Source: a virus
DNA: 64,000 nucleotides
Strand: one strand, 5' to 3'
IMG/VR virus record: IMGVR_UViG_3300005805_000045
Span: 1-64,000 of that record
A program made the position numbers and the translations under genes. Shown here piece after piece: positions 13,602 through 50,836 of this stretch. Numbering within the stretch: the stretch's first letter is position 1; the number at the start of each line of letters is the position of its first letter. The notes beneath the pieces are model-generated. The model saw nothing but the letters and a program-made list of their open reading frames with translations. It searched no databases and was not told the origin of the DNA.

Positions 13602-13630
13602 ATTATACATCAGGCTGGCATAACTTGCAA
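13602..13630 (-). promoter_or_regulatory. sigma70-type promoter for gp45 operon
   Basis: TTGCAA-N17-TATAAT. Confidence 0.7.
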
Positions 13631-14227
13631 GCACTTTTCTACGAGTTTAGCCAGTGTTTGCTTGTTACTGTCATTGTGGATTGTAGCGTCAGGTTTAGTT
13701 CCTATCCATGCCCATTCAGACACATGAACGTCAGGATATTTCTGTGGCATCTCATTAGTATTGAGCATGTTATGATTATACGCTGTATCGTACCAAACTG
13801 GATTTGGTCCTCTCTGGATTCGAATCAACTTGCCACCTAGTCTTTGAATGCATTCGATCTCATTTGGAAAACGAACATCAGTAATCACAACATTATCTTT
13901 GCCAGCGATCTTACTTTCGAGTGAATGCACCCAGATGTTTTGATTGATCACATTGCGCATTGCATCGGTACCAACTTGCTGTAGAATCATGCGAGGTGTG
14001 ATATCACGACCAAAACGGGCACTCCAGAAAACATCAACTTTTTCACGAAACGCACGACTAGGTTCTGTATCTCCTTCTAGCAATGCACGATCCCAGTTGA
14101 AGATAACTGAGACAGCATCTTTGAGACTATCGGCAAAAGCATATTGTTGATATCCATAGTTCTGCACCAGAATATCACCAACAGTGCTTTTGCCCGCTCC
14201 TGCAAATCCAAGCAGTCCGATCAGCAC
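13610..14227 (-). CDS. gp1: Deoxynucleoside monophosphate kinase (gp1), GTG start
   Basis: GFAGAGKST, FADSLK, TPRMILQQVGT, ITDVRFPNE, HVSE. Confidence 0.93.
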   Translation of the reverse strand: MLIGLLGFAGAGKSTVGDILVQNYGYQQYAFADSLKDAVSVIFNWDRALLEGDTEPSRAFREKVDVFWSARFGRDITPRMILQQVGTDAMRNVINQNIWVHSLESKIAGKDNVVITDVRFPNEIECIQRLGGKLIRIQRGPNPVWYDTAYNHNMLNTNEMPQKYPDVHVSEWAWIGTKPDATIHNDSNKQTLAKLVEKCLQVMPA

Positions 14228-14904
14228 TGAACGTCTCCTTTTTTTCGTTTAGGATTTTTTTGAGGTCCCCGAGGACCTCGCATTTTATTTTTAGTCTCTT
14301 CAGTATGTTTTTGCAAGCCTGTTTTACCCTTATTCCAAGGAATATTGCCGATTAAACTTTCACTCATTTTCTTTCTGGATTCTTGAGTGTGTTTTTTCCC
14401 TGATATATATGGCATTTTACCTATGTTTGCTTCTCCTGCTTTTTTTCTATTTTCGGGATTAGAAAATTGAAGAATTGCTTTTTTTCGCAATTTTTCTTTT
14501 GTTGCTTCCGAAATAGTTTTGCCTTTTTGTGATTCGACGAATCTTTGCCATGCTTCGGATGTTTCTAATGTCTTCTTTCGTTTTTCTACTATAGTAGATA
14601 TTTTATTTACATCAGAAGACCAGTGTCCCCATTTGTGTTGTCTTAGATTATAATATTTTTTACCTAAATCGTTTATAGAAATCATCTGCAACCATCTGTG
14701 TTCTTCAACTAAGAGATCATTTCTATTAGTGTAAACTTTGGTAATAATGCGTCGTTTGAAATCTTCTGGTCTACGTCTGTACGCATCACGCATTCTGTTA
14801 GACGAACAAATATAACCATCATCTACTGTTCCCCAGTGACTGCCAAGATAGTACATTTTTCGTTTACGATCATACCAAATATAAATAAATCCATATTTTT
14901 CCAC
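14221..14904 (-). mobile_element. Free-standing Seg-like GIY-YIG homing endonuclease
   Basis: GFIYIW...YYLGSH...YICSS...E...YYNL, plus NUMOD3-like HTQESRKKMS repeats. Confidence 0.88.
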
Positions 14905-14906
14905 TG

Positions 14907-14944
14907 AAATATCTCCTTTGATGTTATCTCTGGAGATATTTAGT
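14907..14944 (-). promoter_or_regulatory. Late promoter ACTAAATA overlapping an SD-occluding hairpin
   Basis: AAATATCTCC...GGAGATATTT stem contains the GGAG SD. Confidence 0.7.
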
Positions 14945-14957
14945 AAAACCGAGTGTT

Positions 14958-15791
14958 CTATAACGATCCAGTTAGAGCCGCAATCTTAGGCATATCGCCA
15001 GTGAACGCATAGGTACCAACGTGCTGTGTCTTCATCCATGGGCACAGCCAAATCTTACCACCGATAGCTCGCCAATATTGACAGAACATGTAGTCTTCGG
15101 AAAGATAACGATGGCTATCAGGATCAATTACAGTGTCAAAGTACGCATGAATGTAGCGTGAACCATCAAAGTTAGCTTGACCAACATGATCAGGTTTGTA
15201 GTTCAGGTGTGGATATTCTTCTTTGAACTTGTCAAACACAGCTCGTTTGATCATCATGAAGCCTGTGCCGATTTCCATGACTTCGAGTGGCTCAGTCACT
15301 TTGAAGGACTTTGTACCAGGAACTGGGTTGAACACATATTCACCAGTCACACCCTCAAGCTCTCCTGGATTGAACTTGCTTTCATCAAAATCTTTGTTAC
15401 CGATCAATCCTTTTGATGCTTTCCACACTGCACCCCAGTTGATTGACTTCTTGGGATATGGTCCACCAATTACATCTTTGTCCATTGCAATCAGAGCAAG
15501 CACATCTTCTGGATTGAATAGAATGTCCGAGTCGATAAACAACATATGTGTAAAGCCTGACCGAATAAACTCATCAACCAGATAATTACGAGCACGAGTA
15601 ATCAGAGATTCATTGAAAAGAAACGAGAAGCGGCACTCTACGCCATACTTCAAACAAAGTCCTTGCAGATCGAGGCAGGCTTTCATGTATAGACCAACAC
15701 AGTTTCCGCCATACATTGGTGTTGCGATGAATAGTTTAACTTTACGCAGTTCTTCAGGGCTGAAGACTTCAGGGCTGATGCGAATTTCCAT
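14958..15791 (-). CDS. Conserved T4-like GT-A fold protein
   Basis: IATPMYGG, NESLITRARN, MLFIDSDI, GTGFMMIKR, YLSEDYMFC. Confidence 0.7.
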   Translation of the reverse strand: MEIRISPEVFSPEELRKVKLFIATPMYGGNCVGLYMKACLDLQGLCLKYGVECRFSFLFNESLITRARNYLVDEFIRSGFTHMLFIDSDILFNPEDVLALIAMDKDVIGGPYPKKSINWGAVWKASKGLIGNKDFDESKFNPGELEGVTGEYVFNPVPGTKSFKVTEPLEVMEIGTGFMMIKRAVFDKFKEEYPHLNYKPDHVGQANFDGSRYIHAYFDTVIDPDSHRYLSEDYMFCQYWRAIGGKIWLCPWMKTQHVGTYAFTGDMPKIAALTGSL

Positions 15792-22897: not shown

Positions 22898-23596
22898 ATG
22901 TACATTATATATCTTTTGACCAACACTGTCAATCAAAAAGTATACGTTGGTGTAACTAACAACTACAAAAAACGAATGAGAGAACACAGTTATGCAAAAA
23001 ATGACTATGTTATATCAAGAGCGATAAGAAAACATGGATGGAATAATTTCACAACATCTGTATTGTTGGAAACTGAAAACAAAGATTATGCCTATAAGCA
23101 AGCTGAAGCCATTTTCATTGCAAAGTTTTCATCAAATGATCCAAACAAAGGATATAACTCGACAATCGGAGGAGAAGGATCACCTGGTTTTAGATTTTCG
23201 GACGAAACAAAAGAGATCATGAGAACAAAAAAACAAGGCAAAAAACTATCTACAGAACATCGCATGAAAATTTCCGAAAATAATAAAGGAAGAATATTTT
23301 CAACAGAAACACGCAAAAAAATATCTGAGGCATTACGCGGCAACAAGAACTTTCAAGGTAAGTGTGTCTCAAACGAACATAGAAGAAAACTTTCTGAAGC
23401 TAATTCAAAAACTTGGACTTTCATTGATCCTAATGGAGAACTCGTTAGTATTCTCAATTTGAGAGAGTTCTGCTTAAAAAATTCTCTTCATCCATCAGCA
23501 ATGTCTCGTGTTGCACACGGAAAACAAACAACACATAAAGGTTGGAAAGCGGTTAGACATGTTCGATTGTCAATGCTTCCTGGTATATATCCTTGA
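22898..23596 (+). mobile_element. GIY-YIG/NUMOD3 homing endonuclease, antisense between gp47 and gp46
   Basis: IIY...VYVG...RMREH...E...GYNSTIGGEG; TCTAAATA late-type promoter at 22858-22865. Confidence 0.9.
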
Positions 23597-26250: not shown

Positions 26251-27714
26251 CTAGATTCCTTTGAGTTCTATTTTATAGAGTTTGAATTGAAACTTTTCTT
26301 CACTGTAGATTTTGATGCGTTCTTGGAAATGCTTGAGAGTGTAGTTCTCGTGCTTCTTGTGTCTCATGTCATCCGCAATATCATAGAGTGTCGCTGATGA
26401 TTTGGTATCTGACTTACGTAGGCTTCGACCTATCGATTGAAGATTCCTAATACGAGATTTAGAAGGGCTGGCAAAAATGACATTGTGTAGATTGCGAATA
26501 TTGACACCAGTGGAAAAAGTGCCGTAACTAGCAACAATGATAGCGTCTCGTTCTGACTCAACGATTGCTCTTGTTTCTTCTCTGATTTCCACATCAGTTT
26601 TGCCATAAATGAAGAAAACTTTTCTTTCATCAGCCTTTTCTTTTATCAGTTGTTCTAGTATTTTTCCATGCTTATCGACATACTGATAAAGAACAAGAGT
26701 GTTTCCTTCGAGAGACAATGCTAGATTCCGAATAAACTTGTTCCTAGTCTCATTCAATACAAGATATTCAATTTCTTGTTGATATGTAAAGTTTCTTGCA
26801 GCCTGACATACACTATCAGAGTGTTTTAGCAACAGACACTTGATGCGAAAATCAGCAACATGTTTTTGATCCATAAGCTCTTTAGTCGTGATGACTTTCT
26901 TGACAGGACCAAAGAGTCCTTCAAGAACCAACTTATGTGTCTTTGTGCCGTCAAGTGTACCTGTAGTACCAACTCGATATTTAGCATTAACCAGATTGGT
27001 CATGATATGTGTGAGTGACTTTGCTTTGAACTGATGAGCTTCGTCGCCAATCACTGCTTGGTATTGTTTGAAATACGCTGCTGGTAGTGTGTGTAGACTT
27101 TGCCAAGTTGAGATAACCACTGGCTTATCAGTCTGTTTGTCTTGTCCAGCAAATATACGATGGACATAGCGATCAGAATCATAGCCGTAATCAGCAAAAT
27201 CAGTGAAAAGCTGAGAAACCAGTCCTGTTGTGGGAACGATGATAAGAATTTTTGAATTGTGTTTTTCTAAAAACCATCTTATCATCAAATAGATAATAAG
27301 CGATTTACCCGATGCAGTAGGACTAAGAAGTAAGCACTTATGTTTGCGAATAGCATGAATGAACGAATCAATCTGATAATCTCTTGGTTCATATTTGAGA
27401 TTGATTTCTTTAGCAAAGTCTTTAGCTTCTTGAATTGAAATCTCTTCATCATGATCTTCTTCATATGTAAAATTGTAGTTCCTATCAATGCAAAACTTTT
27501 CAATATATTGAATAAGACCACGATATATTTGTCTAGTTTGTACGTTGAATAAGTAAATTTTTCCGTCCCAAATTCTGGCTCTAAACTGAGGTGAAAATTG
27601 AGCGCCTGGAACCATAAACGAAAACGCATCTCTAAGTTCATAGGCAATACCATCAGAACAATCTATAATCACATAAGATTCGTTTTTGTTTCTAACAATA
27701 ACAGTATCTGTCAC
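26251..27714 (-). CDS. uvsW: SF2 helicase UvsW, GTG start
   Basis: [30 protein letters not shown]. Confidence 0.97.
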
Positions 27715-28247
27715 TTTTTTCTTTTCGCTTCGCTGATTTTTCTTTTAGTCTCATCTGAAAGTTTTCTTCCTGTTAATGCTTTGGACAATTTCAAAAACGT
27801 TTCTTCTGTTCTTTTTTTGAATGCCAACGACATTTTTTGTTTTGACTCTTGTGTGTGCCTTTTATTTTTCATTGATTGTCGTATTTTATCTTTATGCTCT
27901 TGAGAAAATTTCTTACCTGAATTAGATGTTCGTAACTTTTCTATATGAGAAGATGTAAAAATAATTCCAGATGTGCCTTCACCACCGTCTGTGAGATTTC
28001 TCAATATACCTGTATTGTTATCTATGCGACCGTACCAACGAATATATCTGCGTTCAAGTGCTAATGCTCCAACTTCAGTAAGATTGTTTTCCATTATAAC
28101 TATTCTACGTCTATCTGTTGGTAAATTCATTGAGTGTGTTTTTTGCCATGCTCTATTGCCTTTACCTTTGCCAATATAGTAAGGCGTGCCATCTTCTCTA
28201 AGATAAGCATAAACATAGTATTCTAATGTGGGTTGATAAATAGACAT
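27711..28247 (-). mobile_element. GIY-YIG/NUMOD3 homing endonuclease
   Basis: [19 protein letters not shown]...R...E...[10 protein letters not shown]. Confidence 0.88.
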
Positions 28248-28315
28248 AGCTGGCGCTCCTGTTTAGCGTTAGAGTGGGTAGATGTTTCCAGCATCGTGAC
28301 CCACATCTATTTATA
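28248..28315 (-). promoter_or_regulatory. Late promoter plus conserved structured HEG leader, copy A
   Basis: TATAAATA-gat-GTGGGT-cac-GATG-ctggaaa-CATC-t-ACCCAC-tctaa-CGCT-aaacagg-AGCG-ccagct-ATG. Confidence 0.8.
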
Positions 28316-28318
28316 ATA

Positions 28319-28768
28319 CTACTTACCTCCAGTGAACCTCTCCCATTCGATGATGGACTTGATCTGAAACGTTCTACTATGTAGTTCTTTCAGAATAGAG
28401 GTAGCAGCATCAGCAATTTCTTGATTCATAACTTTTTTCAGCAAAATCTTATTCAAATCATTATCTCCATCCAGATACATGGGAATATCTTGTCTTATAA
28501 TATTTTTGACCATGGGTTCTAAGTTGTGTTCTTTGAGGTCTTCTGGATTATTCAAATTTCCTTTGTAATACTCCCACTTCAATAACTTGGTGCGCTGATA
28601 ATCGTTGTGAAGTTTCTTGACCATTAGATTATGGTAACTTAGAATGCGTAGATATTTGGCATGAAGAATAGGTATCTTTGCCATCGCACGACCAGGTTCT
28701 GTTTCATCAATAACAGAGTCCTCAGCCCATATAGACATGAGGTCTTCAAGAGAGACAGGTGGCTTCAT
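28319..28768 (-). CDS. uvsY: Recombination mediator UvsY
   Basis: WAEDSVID, IPILHAKY, YLDGD, RTFQIKSIIEWERF. Confidence 0.92.
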   Translation of the reverse strand: MKPPVSLEDLMSIWAEDSVIDETEPGRAMAKIPILHAKYLRILSYHNLMVKKLHNDYQRTKLLKWEYYKGNLNNPEDLKEHNLEPMVKNIIRQDIPMYLDGDNDLNKILLKKVMNQEIADAATSILKELHSRTFQIKSIIEWERFTGGK

Positions 28769-46376: not shown

Positions 46377-46798
46377 TTGCTCTGTTCTTTGATCTGCTTG
46401 AGTAGGTCCGCTGTGGTCCCAACGAAGACTGCCTTTTCCACATTGATGGCACCGTCAGGCTGTGACGGTTTGCCCTTGACTTCCTTGAGTTCCTTGGTCT
46501 TCTTTTGAAGCTCATACAGGTCCTTGGTCACGTCGGCAATGGTCTTCATCATGGTGGCATAGACTTCATAGGCACGAGGTGATTCGGCCTCGGAAGCCAG
46601 TTTCTGCATGTCGTCCATAGCAAGATTGCCTTTGCGAATCAACTCACGAAATGTGTTGCGGCTCAACTGATAATCAGATTCTTGATCAGGCAAATTGATT
46701 TCAACTGGCTTATCTTCAATCTTTGCTGGTGGTAATATCTCAACTTGAGATTCGATACCTAATGCTTTTGCTAATGGATCTTTCATAGTATCACTCAT
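46373..46798 (-). CDS. gp16: Terminase small subunit gp16
   Basis: DYQLSR, SPRAYEV, VFVGTTADLLK. Confidence 0.93.
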   Translation of the reverse strand: MSDTMKDPLAKALGIESQVEILPPAKIEDKPVEINLPDQESDYQLSRNTFRELIRKGNLAMDDMQKLASEAESPRAYEVYATMMKTIADVTKDLYELQKKTKELKEVKGKPSQPDGAINVEKAVFVGTTADLLKQIKEQSK

Positions 46799-47801
46799 TT
46801 ATATTGGGAAACTCTTGAATAGTTGTAGAGTATCCGAAATCATCACCTGGTTCGGCATCGATTGGATCAGGCTCAACAGTAATCTTGACAAGTTTGAGCG
46901 GTGAAGCATCAAACGTTGATATGTTGTAAACAGCATTTGTTGATACTGCTCGAATCGTATTATTGACTTTGAACTGACCTTGAGCACCACCGATTTGAAT
47001 CTTCTTTAGTTCTGGATTCCATTCATTAACAAAACCGTATGCTGTGGCTGTATCGTAGTTATTTCCTTGATAAACAATATCACCGATCTTGAATGTCGAG
47101 TTAGCACCATTGTTGAGATACATCCGAACGATATTACCAGCAACCAGAGATGGATCGTTGAAGATATTGGCAATAGACTTGCGAATGATCTTTGGTGTTG
47201 TGATTGGACCAAAGAAATAACCCTTGACTGTAAATGTAAAGTTCCAGTTTACATACCGAACAGTATCGTAATTGCCCTCATAAGTGACATTCTGTGTGAC
47301 ACTGTTTAGAATGATAGGAATGTCTTTCAAAAATCCTAGTTCAGACACAGGAGTCATAGTAAGTGTAAAGTCAGGATTGAAATATGGCAAAATCTGCTCT
47401 GCTATATGTGTGCCATCGTCAATTGTCTTTGTGTATAGATTAAGTTCAAAGTTTATGTCATATGGCACACCCATGTACTGTGATGAAACTCTGGATGCTG
47501 TATCACCTTTAGCAACACGAAGGAGTGAGTTCTGCTTTCTAGATTGATCATATCCAATGCCAGTGATTTCAAATGACAGTCTTGGTAGAATGTTCTGAAA
47601 CTCACGAAGCAAGTCTGGATCTGATTCAAGACGTGTTACAAAGTGATCTTTGGGTGCATAAACGATAGGAACTTTCCATCTCTTGATTTCATTGTTACTA
47701 TCTTTCTCTGTTCTAATGATTGTGATGTCATTGAACATCGACCCAAAAATAATGACATATTTTCGTAAGAGTCTGTAATAAAAATGTGTATTACCGAGCG
47801 T
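46791..47801 (-). CDS. gp15: Tail terminator gp15, predicted ACG start
   Basis: VPIVYAPK, LPRLSFE, EQILPYFNP; conserved-looking N-terminus (T)LGNTHFYYRLLRKYVIIFG begins at ACG 47801, 9 nt after GGAGG. Confidence 0.9.
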   Translation of the reverse strand, partial: TLGNTHFYYRLLRKYVIIFGSMFNDITIIRTEKDSNNEIKRWKVPIVYAPKDHFVTRLESDPDLLREFQNILPRLSFEITGIGYDQSRKQNSLLRVAKGDTASRVSSQYMGVPYDINFELNLYTKTIDDGTHIAEQILPYFNPDFTLTMTPVSELGFLKDIPIILNSVTQNVTYEGNYDTVRYVNWNFTFTVKGYFFGPITTPKIIRKSIANIFNDPSLVAGNIVRMYLNNGANSTFKIGDIVYQGNNYDTATAYGFVNEWNPELKKIQIGGAQGQFKVNNTIRAVSTNAVYNISTFDASPLKLVKITVEPDPIDAEPGDDFGYSTTIQEFPNINE

Positions 47802-48312
47802 TGGAATAACCCTCCTTTCTTTTTTTCCACCAGAGTTTTCTGGCTTCAGACATTTTTTGTTTTTGTTCCATACTTTTCTTTACACCAAGATGAGTTTCTT
47901 TTAGAATATTTCTATGCGCATCAGAAAGTTTTTTTCCTTTATGCTGCAATCCTATTATTTTTTTTCTCTCATCTGTTATAGAGTGTTTTCCTTTATTTGA
48001 TTTAGAAATTTTCTGTTTAGTTTCTTCAGAGTGTTTTCTACCAATCAGTTTTTGTCTTACTTTTTCTATATGCTCTTTTGTATGTTTTCTTCCAGTCTGT
48101 GCTTTTCTTATTGCAACTAATGTTGCTTCAGCATGTGTTATTTGTCCTGATAATGCTTTCCATGCAATTTCATCTTCCCAATGTCCTAAATCTTCCCATA
48201 GTTGTTTATGTAGATTTGCATGTTCTTCCATTGATACTAAAACAATATTTGACTTTTCGTCTGTTCCACCCATATGTTTAGGTATAATATGGTGTTTATG
48301 ATAAATATTCAT
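47791..48312 (-). mobile_element. HNH/NUMOD3 homing endonuclease (Mob-like)
   Basis: HKHHIIPKHMGGTDEKSNIV...EEHANLH; ATG 48312 follows AGGAG. Confidence 0.88.
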
Positions 48313-48383
48313 ATACTGGTGCTCCTCATTAGCATTAGAGTGGATAGAGACTGCAATCTCGTGATCCACATTTTTTATTTATT
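48313..48383 (-). promoter_or_regulatory. Late promoter plus conserved structured HEG leader, copy B
   Basis: AATAAATA-aaaaat-GTGGAT-cac-GAGA-ttgcag-TCTC-t-ATCCAC-tctaa-TGCT-aatgagg-AGCA-ccagtat-ATG. Confidence 0.8.
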
Positions 48384-48384
48384 C

Positions 48385-49257
48385 TTATGGTACTCCAAAT
48401 GGATTGCGTTCGGAGAAGTCAATATAACTATTGGCCTCTGATTGTAGAACTCTGTTATCAAAGAGATCATAGTATGGCGACTCACTGAATGTGTTTGTGA
48501 GAACGATTCGCATATTGGTATTTGAATCCATGCCTCTGATATTAGAGTTGTTGGCAAACTCACCTTTGATTGTGTTCAGAGAAATGATCTTGTTGTTTGG
48601 ATCCCAGTTGCTTACTGATGCTGTGGCTGTGGCTGTAGCAAGTGTATTGCCCTGATATACCGTCTCACCAATTCTATAGTTACCAGAACCAGTCATGTTA
48701 TAGTTCAAAGTAAACACAAAATCATCAGAAATCTCGTCAATTTCTTCAACACCTGTGTTCATATCTTCGTTTGAGTATCTGAAGTTCTCGCAACGTATTT
48801 CATAGATGTATGGGAACTTTCTGCCAAGTGTGAAGAATAGCAACTCATCTTCGACGAACTTTATTTCTAGAACCTTATTCATAACAGGAACAAAGAGTAG
48901 ATCACCTTCTCTGGGTCTTCTTGCTATATTTGTTGGTACATACTTATCAAATGTTCTTTTTGCAAGAACAATGTTTGTGTTTTCTCTAATTTCAAGACCA
49001 AACTTTGAAAAGAAGTCACCATCACCTTCGTAGCCATCTACGTTAGCAATATACATTTCCATTTGATAGGCACGTTCGAACTTTGATTGAATATTCTCAC
49101 CAAATATTTGATCAGTTGTATCCCATGCCTCACGAGGAAGATAGTAGATATCATGACCCATGATTTTAATGGACTCGACAAGCACATCTTCATAAAGTCT
49201 TTGTTCGCCTGTGCGATATTTTGGAGAAAAGTTGTTGAAGTAATGGTTTGTGGCTAT
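48385..49257 (-). CDS. gp14: Neck protein gp14, predicted ATA start
   Basis: YYLPRE, FSKFGLEI, RPREGDL, FSERNPFG; (I)ATNHYFNNF begins at ATA 49257, 9 nt after AGGAG, with an in-frame TAG just upstream. Confidence 0.9.
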   Translation of the reverse strand: MATNHYFNNFSPKYRTGEQRLYEDVLVESIKIMGHDIYYLPREAWDTTDQIFGENIQSKFERAYQMEMYIANVDGYEGDGDFFSKFGLEIRENTNIVLAKRTFDKYVPTNIARRPREGDLLFVPVMNKVLEIKFVEDELLFFTLGRKFPYIYEIRCENFRYSNEDMNTGVEEIDEISDDFVFTLNYNMTGSGNYRIGETVYQGNTLATATATASVSNWDPNNKIISLNTIKGEFANNSNIRGMDSNTNMRIVLTNTFSESPYYDLFDNRVLQSEANSYIDFSERNPFGVP

Positions 49258-49261
49258 GGCA

Positions 49262-50038
49262 CTAAACTCCTATATTTTTGACTGTGCCCCTAAACCATTC
49301 ATCTCCGGGACATTCTTTACTTCGTTTATTTATCACACCATTGTTCCACCAAAACGATCCCTTTATATACTTTGCATTATTTGGCGGACGTCCTTTCATT
49401 GTAGCACTTGTTTTAGCATTCATTTGCTTTTTCAATTCAGGATCATGCTGTTTGCCATAAAAAGGATTCTTTTCACCACTAAGAGCATCACTAACTTTTT
49501 TTCTATGTTCATCTGATAAAGGACCCAAGATTTTTCCTTTATTGCTTTCAGATATCTTTCTTTTTGTTTCTTCTGTTTTTTTCTTGCCAGTATTAGATAA
49601 CGATCTCTTTGCGATTTGTTCTAGTGTTTGTGGAGATAGTTTTTTGCGTCCCTCTAAATATTTTTTTTGATATTCTGGATCTTGATGAAGTTTCTTAGAT
49701 GCTTCAGATAGTTTTTCACGAACGTTTTTGTTAGATTGATCATCAATGTGCCAATGGCCAAAATGTTTTTTGCTCAAATTATAATATTTAATGCCCAACT
49801 CGTTATCGGCAATTAATTGAAGCCATTTATGCTCTTGTTCCAACAAAACTTCTTTATCAATATTTTTCTGAATAATACGTCGTTTGAAATTTTCTGGTCT
49901 ACGCCTATATGCATCACGCATTCTTCTAGACGAACAGATGTATCCATCATTTATAGTTCCATAGTGACAGCCGAGATAATACATCTTACGCTTGCTGTCA
50001 TACCAAATATAGATAAATCCTGTCTTTTCTTGGCACAT
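49262..50038 (-). mobile_element. Free-standing Seg-like GIY-YIG homing endonuclease
   Basis: GFIYIWYDSKRKMYYLGCH...YYNL, NUMOD3, WWNNG C-terminus; TATAAATA at 50070-50077. Confidence 0.88.
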
Positions 50039-50092
50039 AATCGGTTCCCATCATAGATATCTTTAGAGCTATTTATATGCAAAATGCGTCAC

Positions 50093-50836
50093 CTAGCCCA
50101 TAATCATCATTGGGGGTTCTTCATGGGAACTCCGAATCAATTGTTCTAATTCTTGAATCTCTTGAATAGCTTCGTTATAGATTTGCTGTCCGTTCATGGT
50201 AATGCCACCAGGTAGTTGCATTCCACTAAATTTCTTCATGTTATTGCCCCACTGCTTTTTGATATAAGCAGTTGCTAGTTTTTTGAGCAGTCTGTCGTTA
50301 TAGACTTTATTATATGTGTCAGGATCAAGAATGATGAATCCTTCGATAACAACATATTCCAATGCGTCAATCTTTGTGTTCCAGTCCCAATCGATATAGA
50401 GTTTGTTTGAATGTCTATTGAATCTAATTGGAGTCTCGCCGGAGAATAGCATATCCAGTGTTCTGATATGTTGCTGGGTTAGTACATAGTTGACATAAGA
50501 AGTAGAAGTAAAGTCATAAAGCTCATGAAGTCTGAGCTGGTAACGCAGGTCGAACATATTGACTGATGCGTTTGTAGAACCTATCGGAAATATTCGTGTG
50601 ATACCAATAATGTTATCAGGAATTGTGATATACTTGTTTGCTATGTCTTGTTGTGTTATTTGATGGCTGATATACCATCTTTCAACGCCATCAACATGGA
50701 AATCTCTATAATACTGAAAGGCTAGATCAACGGCATCTTCCACTTGCTCATCATCAACGTTTATGTCAAGGACTGGTGCACCTAACTGACGTAGGCACCA
50801 ATCTTTTAGTTGTTCTCTTGTGGCTGGTGATGACAT
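50093..50836 (-). CDS. gp13: Neck protein gp13
   Basis: LRQLGAPVLDINV, KKQWGNNMKKF, LPGGITMNG. Confidence 0.95.
   Translation of the reverse strand: MSSPATREQLKDWCLRQLGAPVLDINVDDEQVEDAVDLAFQYYRDFHVDGVERWYISHQITQQDIANKYITIPDNIIGITRIFPIGSTNASVNMFDLRYQLRLHELYDFTSTSYVNYVLTQQHIRTLDMLFSGETPIRFNRHSNKLYIDWDWNTKIDALEYVVIEGFIILDPDTYNKVYNDRLLKKLATAYIKKQWGNNMKKFSGMQLPGGITMNGQQIYNEAIQEIQELEQLIRSSHEEPPMMIMG

Follow-up and report, generated by a model that had tools for sequence, protein, structure and literature searches.

Near-cognate start codons of gp14 and gp15 behind homing endonuclease genes in a T4-like freshwater phage

How is an essential gene translated when the codon at its first position is not a canonical start, and why should such codons occur behind selfish endonuclease genes? 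This question is raised by the first 64 kb of IMG/VR record IMGVR_UViG_3300005805_000045, a stretch of 64,000 nucleotides that was analysed as a whole and is hereafter called the window. It belongs to a 163,885-bp virus genome with direct terminal repeats, that of a T4-like myovirus from lake and drinking-water (freshwater) metagenomes. Two of its genes, encoding the neck protein gp14 (48385-49257) and the tail sheath stabiliser gp15 (46791-47801), each lie just downstream of a free-standing homing endonuclease gene (HEG). At the first position, gp14 has ATA and gp15 has ACG. All features given with coordinates in the window lie on the minus strand, with the exception of a fifth endonuclease gene described below. 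Among ~200 wild relatives, weak starts at these genes are found almost only where a HEG or a leftover spacer breaks an otherwise tight gene junction. Our favoured reading, to which we give a rough probability of 0.5, is that stop-start coupling was replaced at these junctions by a strong Shine-Dalgarno (SD) sequence paired with a weak codon, which would set a low output and would make the tail of the endonuclease cassette hard to delete.

ATA and ACG at the first codons of gp14 and gp15

Both genes were called from their open reading frames (ORFs), Pfam matches and alignment to relatives. The ATA of gp14 (49257-49255) lies 9 nt past an AGGAG motif (49271-49267). Five codons upstream the frame is closed by a TAG (49272-49270), no canonical start occurs in between, and the next in-frame canonical start is a GTG at 49185, 24 codons downstream. 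The ACG of gp15 (47801-47799) lies 9 nt past GGAGG (47815-47811). By sequence and pairing energy, this motif is part of an SD, AGGAGG (47811-47816), inside the coding sequence of the upstream endonuclease gene HEG1 (47791-48312), whose last 11 nt overlap the gp15 start and whose tail codons include the gp15 SD. The gp15 frame is open upstream as far as 47879; these 26 codons contain no ATG, GTG or TTG and only a CTG at -16 and an ATT at -2, and the next in-frame ATG (47738) lies 21 codons downstream. A sequence-only reading of this DNA had noted the missing ATG codons, the strong SD 9 nt upstream and the lack of in-frame ATG, GTG or TTG codons ahead of them. Both frames were checked, contigs of independent studies show the same bases, and these observations stand.

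Could the bases be assembly errors, or could the proteins begin at the next canonical codon? The genome was assembled from a metagenome, which leaves room for errors. However, contigs of other studies are identical at both codons: those of run X5, from an independent drinking-water study, show zero differences over 47715-48539 and 49216-49295, and a contig of X10 shows zero differences over 49028-49295. The variant strain X11, which is ~3% diverged and carries HEG1, has no listed difference at the ACG, with three of its differences not displayed, and independent contigs of relatives show the same codons. The positions of ATA and ACG align with Met1 of relatives in tblastn searches, and the Pfam models begin at residue 6 of gp15 and, for the neck-protein model, at residue 4 of gp14. 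The 21-24 codons that would be lost by a later start are conserved and lie inside the Pfam models; the differences in these stretches relative to L002, L120 and X11 are mostly synonymous, and in both genes these codons appear to be under purifying selection. We consider an artefact or a truncation extremely improbable.

A crude scan of the whole genome (163.9 kb) for near-cognate codons with an SD and an upstream frame open over at least 20 codons returned only gp14 and gp15. Elsewhere in the genome ATG accounts for at least 77% of starts, by a crude census that took the first canonical start of each ORF. At the level of sequence, the ATA of gp14 and the ACG of gp15 are confirmed as a genuine start-site observation.

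Other routes to these proteins were considered and rejected. For a frameshift fusion of HEG1 with gp15 there is no slippery site, and the gp15 homology starts exactly at the ACG. The ATT at 47807-47805 lies only 3 nt past the SD and is not conserved (ACT in L270, AGT in L131). As for a group I intron around HEG1, the non-HEG sequence between gp14 and the endonuclease gene amounts to only ~70 nt. A phage initiator tRNA reading AUA or ACG was discarded as well: in the sole CAU-anticodon tRNA, positions 1 and 72 are paired and the anticodon stem is without the three G-C pairs. This tRNA, one of five encoded by the phage (G000:C1:148676-148751, outside the window), has C4-G69 and C5-G68 pairs, and its features look like those of an AUA-reading tRNA-Ile2 rather than of an initiator. 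As for a hairpin in the translation initiation region, the gp14 leader folds modestly (z -2.5), with pairing that is not present in the HEG-less L002, and no fold was found for the gp15 leader.

Start codons and junction state among relatives

We compared the gp13-gp14-gp15 region at ~200 loci, taken from viral and metagenome contigs. Unique junctions, of which there were ~100 between gp13 and gp14, were sorted by the codon at the Met1 position and by distance from the upstream stop, as tight (at most 12 nt), spacer (13-100 nt) or insertion (more than 100 nt) junctions; the start calls of L011, L059 and L123 were script mis-calls and were excluded. In the ancestral layout seen in relatives, the gp14 ATG lies at most 12 nt past the gp13 stop, the gp15 ATG overlaps the gp14 stop (TAATG), and the SDs are weak. 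Tight gp14 junctions comprised 64 ATG, 2 GTG and no near-cognate codons. Meanwhile, about half of the spacer and insertion junctions of gp14 displayed ATA, ATC, ATT, TTG or a +1 frameshift. The spacer class included ATA (2), ATT (1), TTG (1) and ATG (2), plus the mis-called L011, for which the script called ACG and which has an in-frame ATG a few codons upstream. The insertion class included ATA (4), ATC (2), TTG (3), an out-of-frame ATG of the frameshift type (2) and ATG (9).

A similar distribution of codons was found at gp15. Tight junctions comprised 57 ATG, 1 GTG and a single ACG, the latter (L024) following a gap of 11 nt and having ATC in frame one codon upstream. Spacer junctions had 2 ACG, 1 ATT and 2 ATG, and insertion junctions 3 ACG and 1 ATG. 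The lone inserted ATG (L034) follows a non-endonuclease ORF of 451 aa. The majority of inserts encode GIY-YIG or HNH endonucleases. Of 20 junctions with a HEG, 18 have the HEG stop no farther than 11 nt from the downstream start; the distance is greater in L263 (-32) and at the gp14-gp15 HEG of L261 (-19).

The first 12 alignment columns were left out of the gp14 tree, from which we took independent pairs that differ in junction state. Across 12 such pairs the start codon shifts in the same direction in about eight and never the other way (median p 0.008). The proposed link between a weak start and an upstream HEG was thus borne out across relatives by both census and pairs, and the association of weak starts at gp14 and gp15 with a broken junction or a HEG is real.

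The weak codons differ from ATG at position 1 (TTG), 2 (ACG) or 3 (ATA, ATC, ATT), and they invariably occupy the place of Met1. No fewer than six leader types at gp14 and three at gp15 converge on them. This indicates repeated point changes that would have only weakness in common. ACG is a conserved gp15 start in at least four lineages, which is unusual for a bacterial virus; this codon is not in NCBI table 11 or the standard list of bacterial starts.

Strong SDs accompany these codons, as the sequence-only reading had expected. Their median pairing energies at near-cognate starts are -6.8 and -8.7 kcal/mol, versus -4.0 and -4.2 at tight ATG junctions, and all near-cognate junctions have an SD of -5.6 kcal/mol or stronger. 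For the majority of near-cognate starts, the frame is closed by a stop 2-10 codons upstream, and the intervening codons include no canonical start. The strongest SD (-12.1) belongs to the two frameshift alleles. These come from different lineages (L006:3445-3480 and L025:565-600; gp14 75% and 56% identical), and in each the gp14 ATG opens a different frame from that of the gene body. Homology at the N-terminus passes from one frame to the other at TAC-TTT-C-AAT, downstream of a HEG remnant and of this very strong SD. Both may use programmed +1 frameshifting on UUU_C.

The endonuclease gene ahead of gp14 is HEG2 (49262-50038), a GIY-YIG-type gene with NUMOD3 motifs (Pfam NUMOD3 2.9e-15; PHROG 314 homing endonuclease), and the one ahead of gp15 is HEG1, of the HNH/NUMOD3 type. 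Two further genes of the GIY-YIG type, HEG3 (27711-28247) and HEG4 (14221-14904; cassette 14222-14964 by comparison with a HEG-less allele), precede the helicase gene uvsW (26251-27714) and the dNMP kinase gene (13610-14227), which were identified by Pfam and by comparison with relatives. NUMOD3 scores above the Pfam cut-off in all four endonucleases, and all four match PHROG homing endonuclease families; the HNH score of HEG1 is slightly under the Pfam cut-off (18.9 vs 21.4 bits), and the GIY-YIG motifs of HEG2-4 were recognised by eye only. These genes are present or missing at fixed intergenic sites, being missing in L120, L002, L237 and the X5 joint. The closest relative (L120) lacks HEG2, as does one of the alleles that co-occur in run X5, and HEG1 is missing from L002 and most relatives and present in X11. 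By family motifs and presence/absence polymorphism, HEG1-HEG4 are predicted to be free-standing homing endonuclease genes. Run X5 contains the HEG2-bearing ATA allele and a HEG2-less tight ATG allele together (49245-50097), which is a live presence/absence polymorphism of HEG2.

The sequence-only reading had counted four of four genes behind HEGs as non-ATG and HEG-linked. This stands for gp14, gp15 and the dNMP kinase. The GTG of the kinase (14227) lies 7 nt past AAGGAG and is supplied by the HEG4 cassette, which stands in place of 15 nt of the HEG-less allele, among them the ATG and codon 2. HEG-less relatives have ATG in 16 of 16 cases, one of them 98% identical in protein, and the GTG is, by this comparison, specific to the HEG-bearing allele. 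The claim fails for uvsW. Its GTG (27714) overlaps the HEG3 stop as GTGA, yet HEG-less relatives display 33 GTG, 7 TTG and 11 ATG among 55 unique junctions, and two HEG-bearing relatives start uvsW with ATG. Judging from these junctions, the GTG of uvsW is ancestral rather than HEG-linked, and it says nothing on endonucleases.

Re-wired translation and competing explanations

Because the ancestral ATG codons lie near or overlap the upstream stop and have weak SDs, translational coupling is suggested, and gp14 and gp15 would presumably have been translated in this way before any insertion. A HEG cassette, or the spacer that it leaves or lands in, would separate the genes, and the downstream gene would gain an independent initiation region. 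The strength of this region would be set by a strong SD paired with a weak codon or, alternatively, by TTG or by a +1 frameshift behind ATG. In the window, initiator tRNA would read the AUA of gp14 and the ACG of gp15 in the place of Met1, and translation from these codons would be driven by a strong and well-spaced SD. The output would be kept low, suiting proteins needed in few copies per virion, and the HEG would bring its own late promoter. In E. coli, initiation at AUA, AUC and AUU reaches 1-2% of that at AUG (10.1101/063800), and the host here may differ. ACG is not among the four named near-cognates of that study and therefore belongs to its 0.1-1% class (10.1101/063800). Because the essential gene would depend on sequence in or beside the HEG tail, only deletions that keep the tail would survive, and the cassette would become entrenched. 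The codons, the SDs and their association with the junctions are direct observations; from them we infer the dosage logic, the direction of cause, the entrenchment and the adaptive rather than scar-like nature of the weak codon.

Several points weigh against this reading. A strong SD with a weak codon has no obvious advantage over a weak SD with ATG, the pair used by nine inserted gp14 junctions. Decoupled alleles may simply tolerate HEG insertion, which would reverse the direction of cause. A near-identical ATA module occurs across gp14 backgrounds that are 48-90% identical, suggesting recent spread by recombination, and such spread would fit hitchhiking with the HEG or immunity to it as well as tuning. 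Finally, initiation efficiencies from E. coli may not hold in the host of this phage.

This module (49258-49273) comprises the AGGAG SD followed by a TAG that overlaps a GTG. The same 16 nt are found in L002 (90% identical), a HEG-less locus with a weak start, which retains the last 16 nt of the HEG2 of the window. The GTG opens an out-of-frame mini-ORF of two codons, GTG-CCA-TAG (49262-49254), whose stop overlaps the gp14 ATA; this TAG/GTG pattern (49254-49264) is kept in six of six ATA lineages. The module also lies behind a GIY-YIG HEG (L148), an HNH HEG (L270) and an unclassified insert (L022), and it occurs in the HEG-less L028/L029. Since it stands behind GIY-YIG, HNH or no endonuclease, with different HEG frames, the module would be a property of the gp14 leader and not of one nuclease. 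The insert of L022 (L022:243-1724) measures 1.6 kb and encodes a 494-aa protein, the only match of which is to a restriction-endonuclease-like Pfam family and is weak and sub-threshold. At gp15, L270 retains ~26 nt resembling the HEG1 tail, and L259, which is HEG-less there, has a leader in common with the HEG-bearing L261.

The explanation offered by the sequence-only reading was target-site immunity: the HEGs would recognise the conserved start region of the downstream gene, a change of the start codon would prevent self-cleavage, and a strong SD would compensate. The start codon is indeed the one invariant codon that can be changed without altering the protein, and homing endonucleases tend to read constrained bases and to tolerate variation at wobble positions. 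The right edges of the cassettes fall within the first 2-4 codons of the downstream gene, and differences are dense there: relative to L120 (HEG-less, ATG, 95% protein identity), 4 of the first 12 nt of gp14 and 1 of the next 48 are changed in the window, as are 3 of the first 6 nt of the dNMP kinase gene relative to L237 (HEG-less, 98% identical). The two alleles of HEG2 in run X5 and the association of weak starts with insertions also speak for immunity.

However, immunity as stated is not supported. ATG is retained at the nine inserted gp14 junctions, and the substitution is not confined to HEG-bearing alleles: ATA occurs in the HEG-less L002 and L028/L029, and ACG in the spacer-only L259, L270 and L024. 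Sharing of the codons by HEG-less relatives, which the sequence-only reading had itself named as a result that would speak against immunity, is therefore seen in part. HEGs that are ~75% identical to one another precede ATA, ATG and TTG; for example, the HEG of L104, at one of the nine ATG junctions, has ~75% identity with the HEGs that precede ATA in the window and in L148. Conversely, the same ATA module follows endonucleases of two families or none. By visual comparison of junctions, HEG-bearing alleles are not enriched in other substitutions over the conserved 5′ coding stretch, and the mapped Seg cleavage sites of T4 lie hundreds of bp from the insertion. Furthermore, the changes affect all three codon positions and are joined by a frameshift (a base inserted 20 nt downstream), and for this reason weaker initiation would fit better than DNA contact. 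We regard immunity as unlikely.

The mosaic structure of gp14 brings in another possibility, namely that the weak codon is a scar. Imprecise insertion or repair would have produced this codon a single time in each module, at a mild cost, and the codon would then have spread by co-conversion with the HEG and outlasted the latter. The leader and the first 6-12 nt of the gene are as in L002 and L028 and the remainder is closest to L120, the module is near-identical over the diverse gp14 backgrounds mentioned above, and tail remnants are retained by HEG-less alleles. Yet the weak codon is always exactly at Met1 and one base from ATG, so that it resembles a point mutation and not a random junction. 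One transition would revert it, and no reversion was seen in many lineages; moreover, several leader types at each gene converge on weak starts. Such a scar is, in our judgement, decidedly unlikely.

The overlap of stop and start codons raises a further possibility, in which initiation at the weak codons falls mainly to ribosomes that have just terminated on an upstream overlapping frame, either a HEG or the GTG mini-ORF, and the neck proteins depend on translation of the HEG frame. The GTG at -5 and the stop overlapping ATA, common to the ATA lineages, agree with this idea, and in L148 and L270 that frame is the HEG itself. A GTG at -5 also precedes the ACG in L259 and L261, and the proximity of HEG stops to downstream starts points the same way. 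On the other hand, the motif is missing from the gp15 leader of the window and from ATC and ATT leaders, its conservation within the module may reflect common descent only, and the SD spacing of 7-10 nt to the weak codon already suits direct initiation, while 2-5 nt to the GTG of the mini-ORF is short. Re-initiation of this kind seems very improbable as the main route. Slippage by -1 that would carry ribosomes out of the mini-ORF and into gp14 was also considered and judged unlikely, since the tRNA could not re-pair.

Re-wired translation may also be put in a more general form. HEG cassettes of T4-like phages would then systematically capture the start of the essential gene behind them, the near-cognate codon would need the SD of the cassette or a terminating ribosome, and the cassette would become undeletable, a form of translational addiction. 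The start codon, changeable without a change of protein, may in addition be a blind spot of the endonuclease. We find this general form rather doubtful at present and put it forward tentatively.

Genomic surroundings and known systems

Upstream of HEG2 lies the gene of the neck protein gp13 (50093-50836), identified as an ORF with tblastn matches to relatives. The leader of HEG2 carries a match to the T4-type late promoter consensus TATAAATA (50070-50077), which also occurs before HEG3 at 28308-28315; in the 64 kb there are 9 matches versus 3.3 expected. HEG1 has a leader (48313-48384) with a late-promoter-like box, AATAAATA, and a hairpin. By alignment and folds, this leader is homologous to that of HEG3 (28248-28320), each being ~75 nt long, and the hairpin displays a compensatory A-U to G-C change; the two genes encode endonucleases of the HNH and GIY-YIG types, respectively. 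The genome has five such endonuclease genes in total, every one inside the first 64 kb. The fifth, a GIY-YIG/NUMOD3 gene at 22898-23596, lies on the plus strand, opposite to its neighbours.

The closest cultured relatives by gp14 are cyanomyoviruses (~37% identity). Megablast of the region against cultured phages gave no match, and the only homologues of HEG2 are distant ones in Sinorhizobium and Rhizobium phages. A permuted tmRNA of the alphaproteobacterial type (G000:C1:98804-99177, locus L282:305-678, outside the window; Rfam RF04321 97 bits, RF01849 77 bits) hints at an alphaproteobacterial host. The proteins gp14 (48385-48700) and gp15 (46791-47100) have a C-terminal domain of ~70 residues in common, with cross-matches of 30-40% identity, and in gp13 of some marine relatives there is an in-frame insert of 89 residues with a similar sequence (L105:1576-2583). 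In X11, gp15 displays a one-base insertion and a one-base deletion 4 bases apart (47691-47695), which jointly restore the frame.

If the link between HEGs and weak starts holds, it has several implications. Selfish endonuclease genes would reshape the translation, and not only the transcription, of neighbouring essential genes, and this would provide a concrete and testable route by which HEGs become hard to lose. ACG would join the start codons apparently used in nature by a bacterial virus. In addition, gene callers will truncate or miss such genes beside HEGs; in the window gp14 would lose 24 residues and gp15 21. Our literature searches found no prior report tying near-cognate starts to HEGs.

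Parts of this arrangement are reminiscent of known systems. The E. coli genes infC (encoding IF3) and pcnB start at AUU. As at gp14 and gp15, a near-cognate start stands there behind an SD and is selected for low or regulated translation, with Met still inserted. Unlike in those genes, the codons here are AUA and ACG, they belong to phage structural genes, the trait tracks the insertion of a mobile endonuclease, and nothing indicates autoregulation by IF3. The layout of stop-start coupling, as in TAATG and ATGA overlaps (for example in the clamp loader genes of T4), is likewise seen at the gp14/gp15 junction of relatives, and the ATA/TAG overlap has the same geometry. In contrast, gp13 and gp14 of relatives are adjacent within 12 nt and do not overlap, and in the window the coupling partner would be a HEG or a mini-ORF and the restart codon is non-canonical.

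The intronless homing of T4 SegF and SegG against T2 also involves GIY-YIG/HNH genes between conserved genes, presence and absence in close relatives, and substitutions clustered beside the insertion. The present case differs in that the substitution proposed to confer immunity is also seen where there is no HEG, and many alleles with a HEG lack it. A parallel for entrenchment comes from T4, in which promoters of essential genes are embedded in seg and mob genes, such as those of gene 32 in segG, an arrangement argued to favour HEG retention (PMC2988022). In both cases a free-standing HEG cassette displaces native signals and carries those needed by the essential gene downstream; here the captured signal would be translational, an SD in or near the HEG tail with a weakened start codon, which is not described in PMC2988022. 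Near-cognate starts for low expression and HEG cassettes with signals of their neighbours were thus known separately, and the link between the two would be new.

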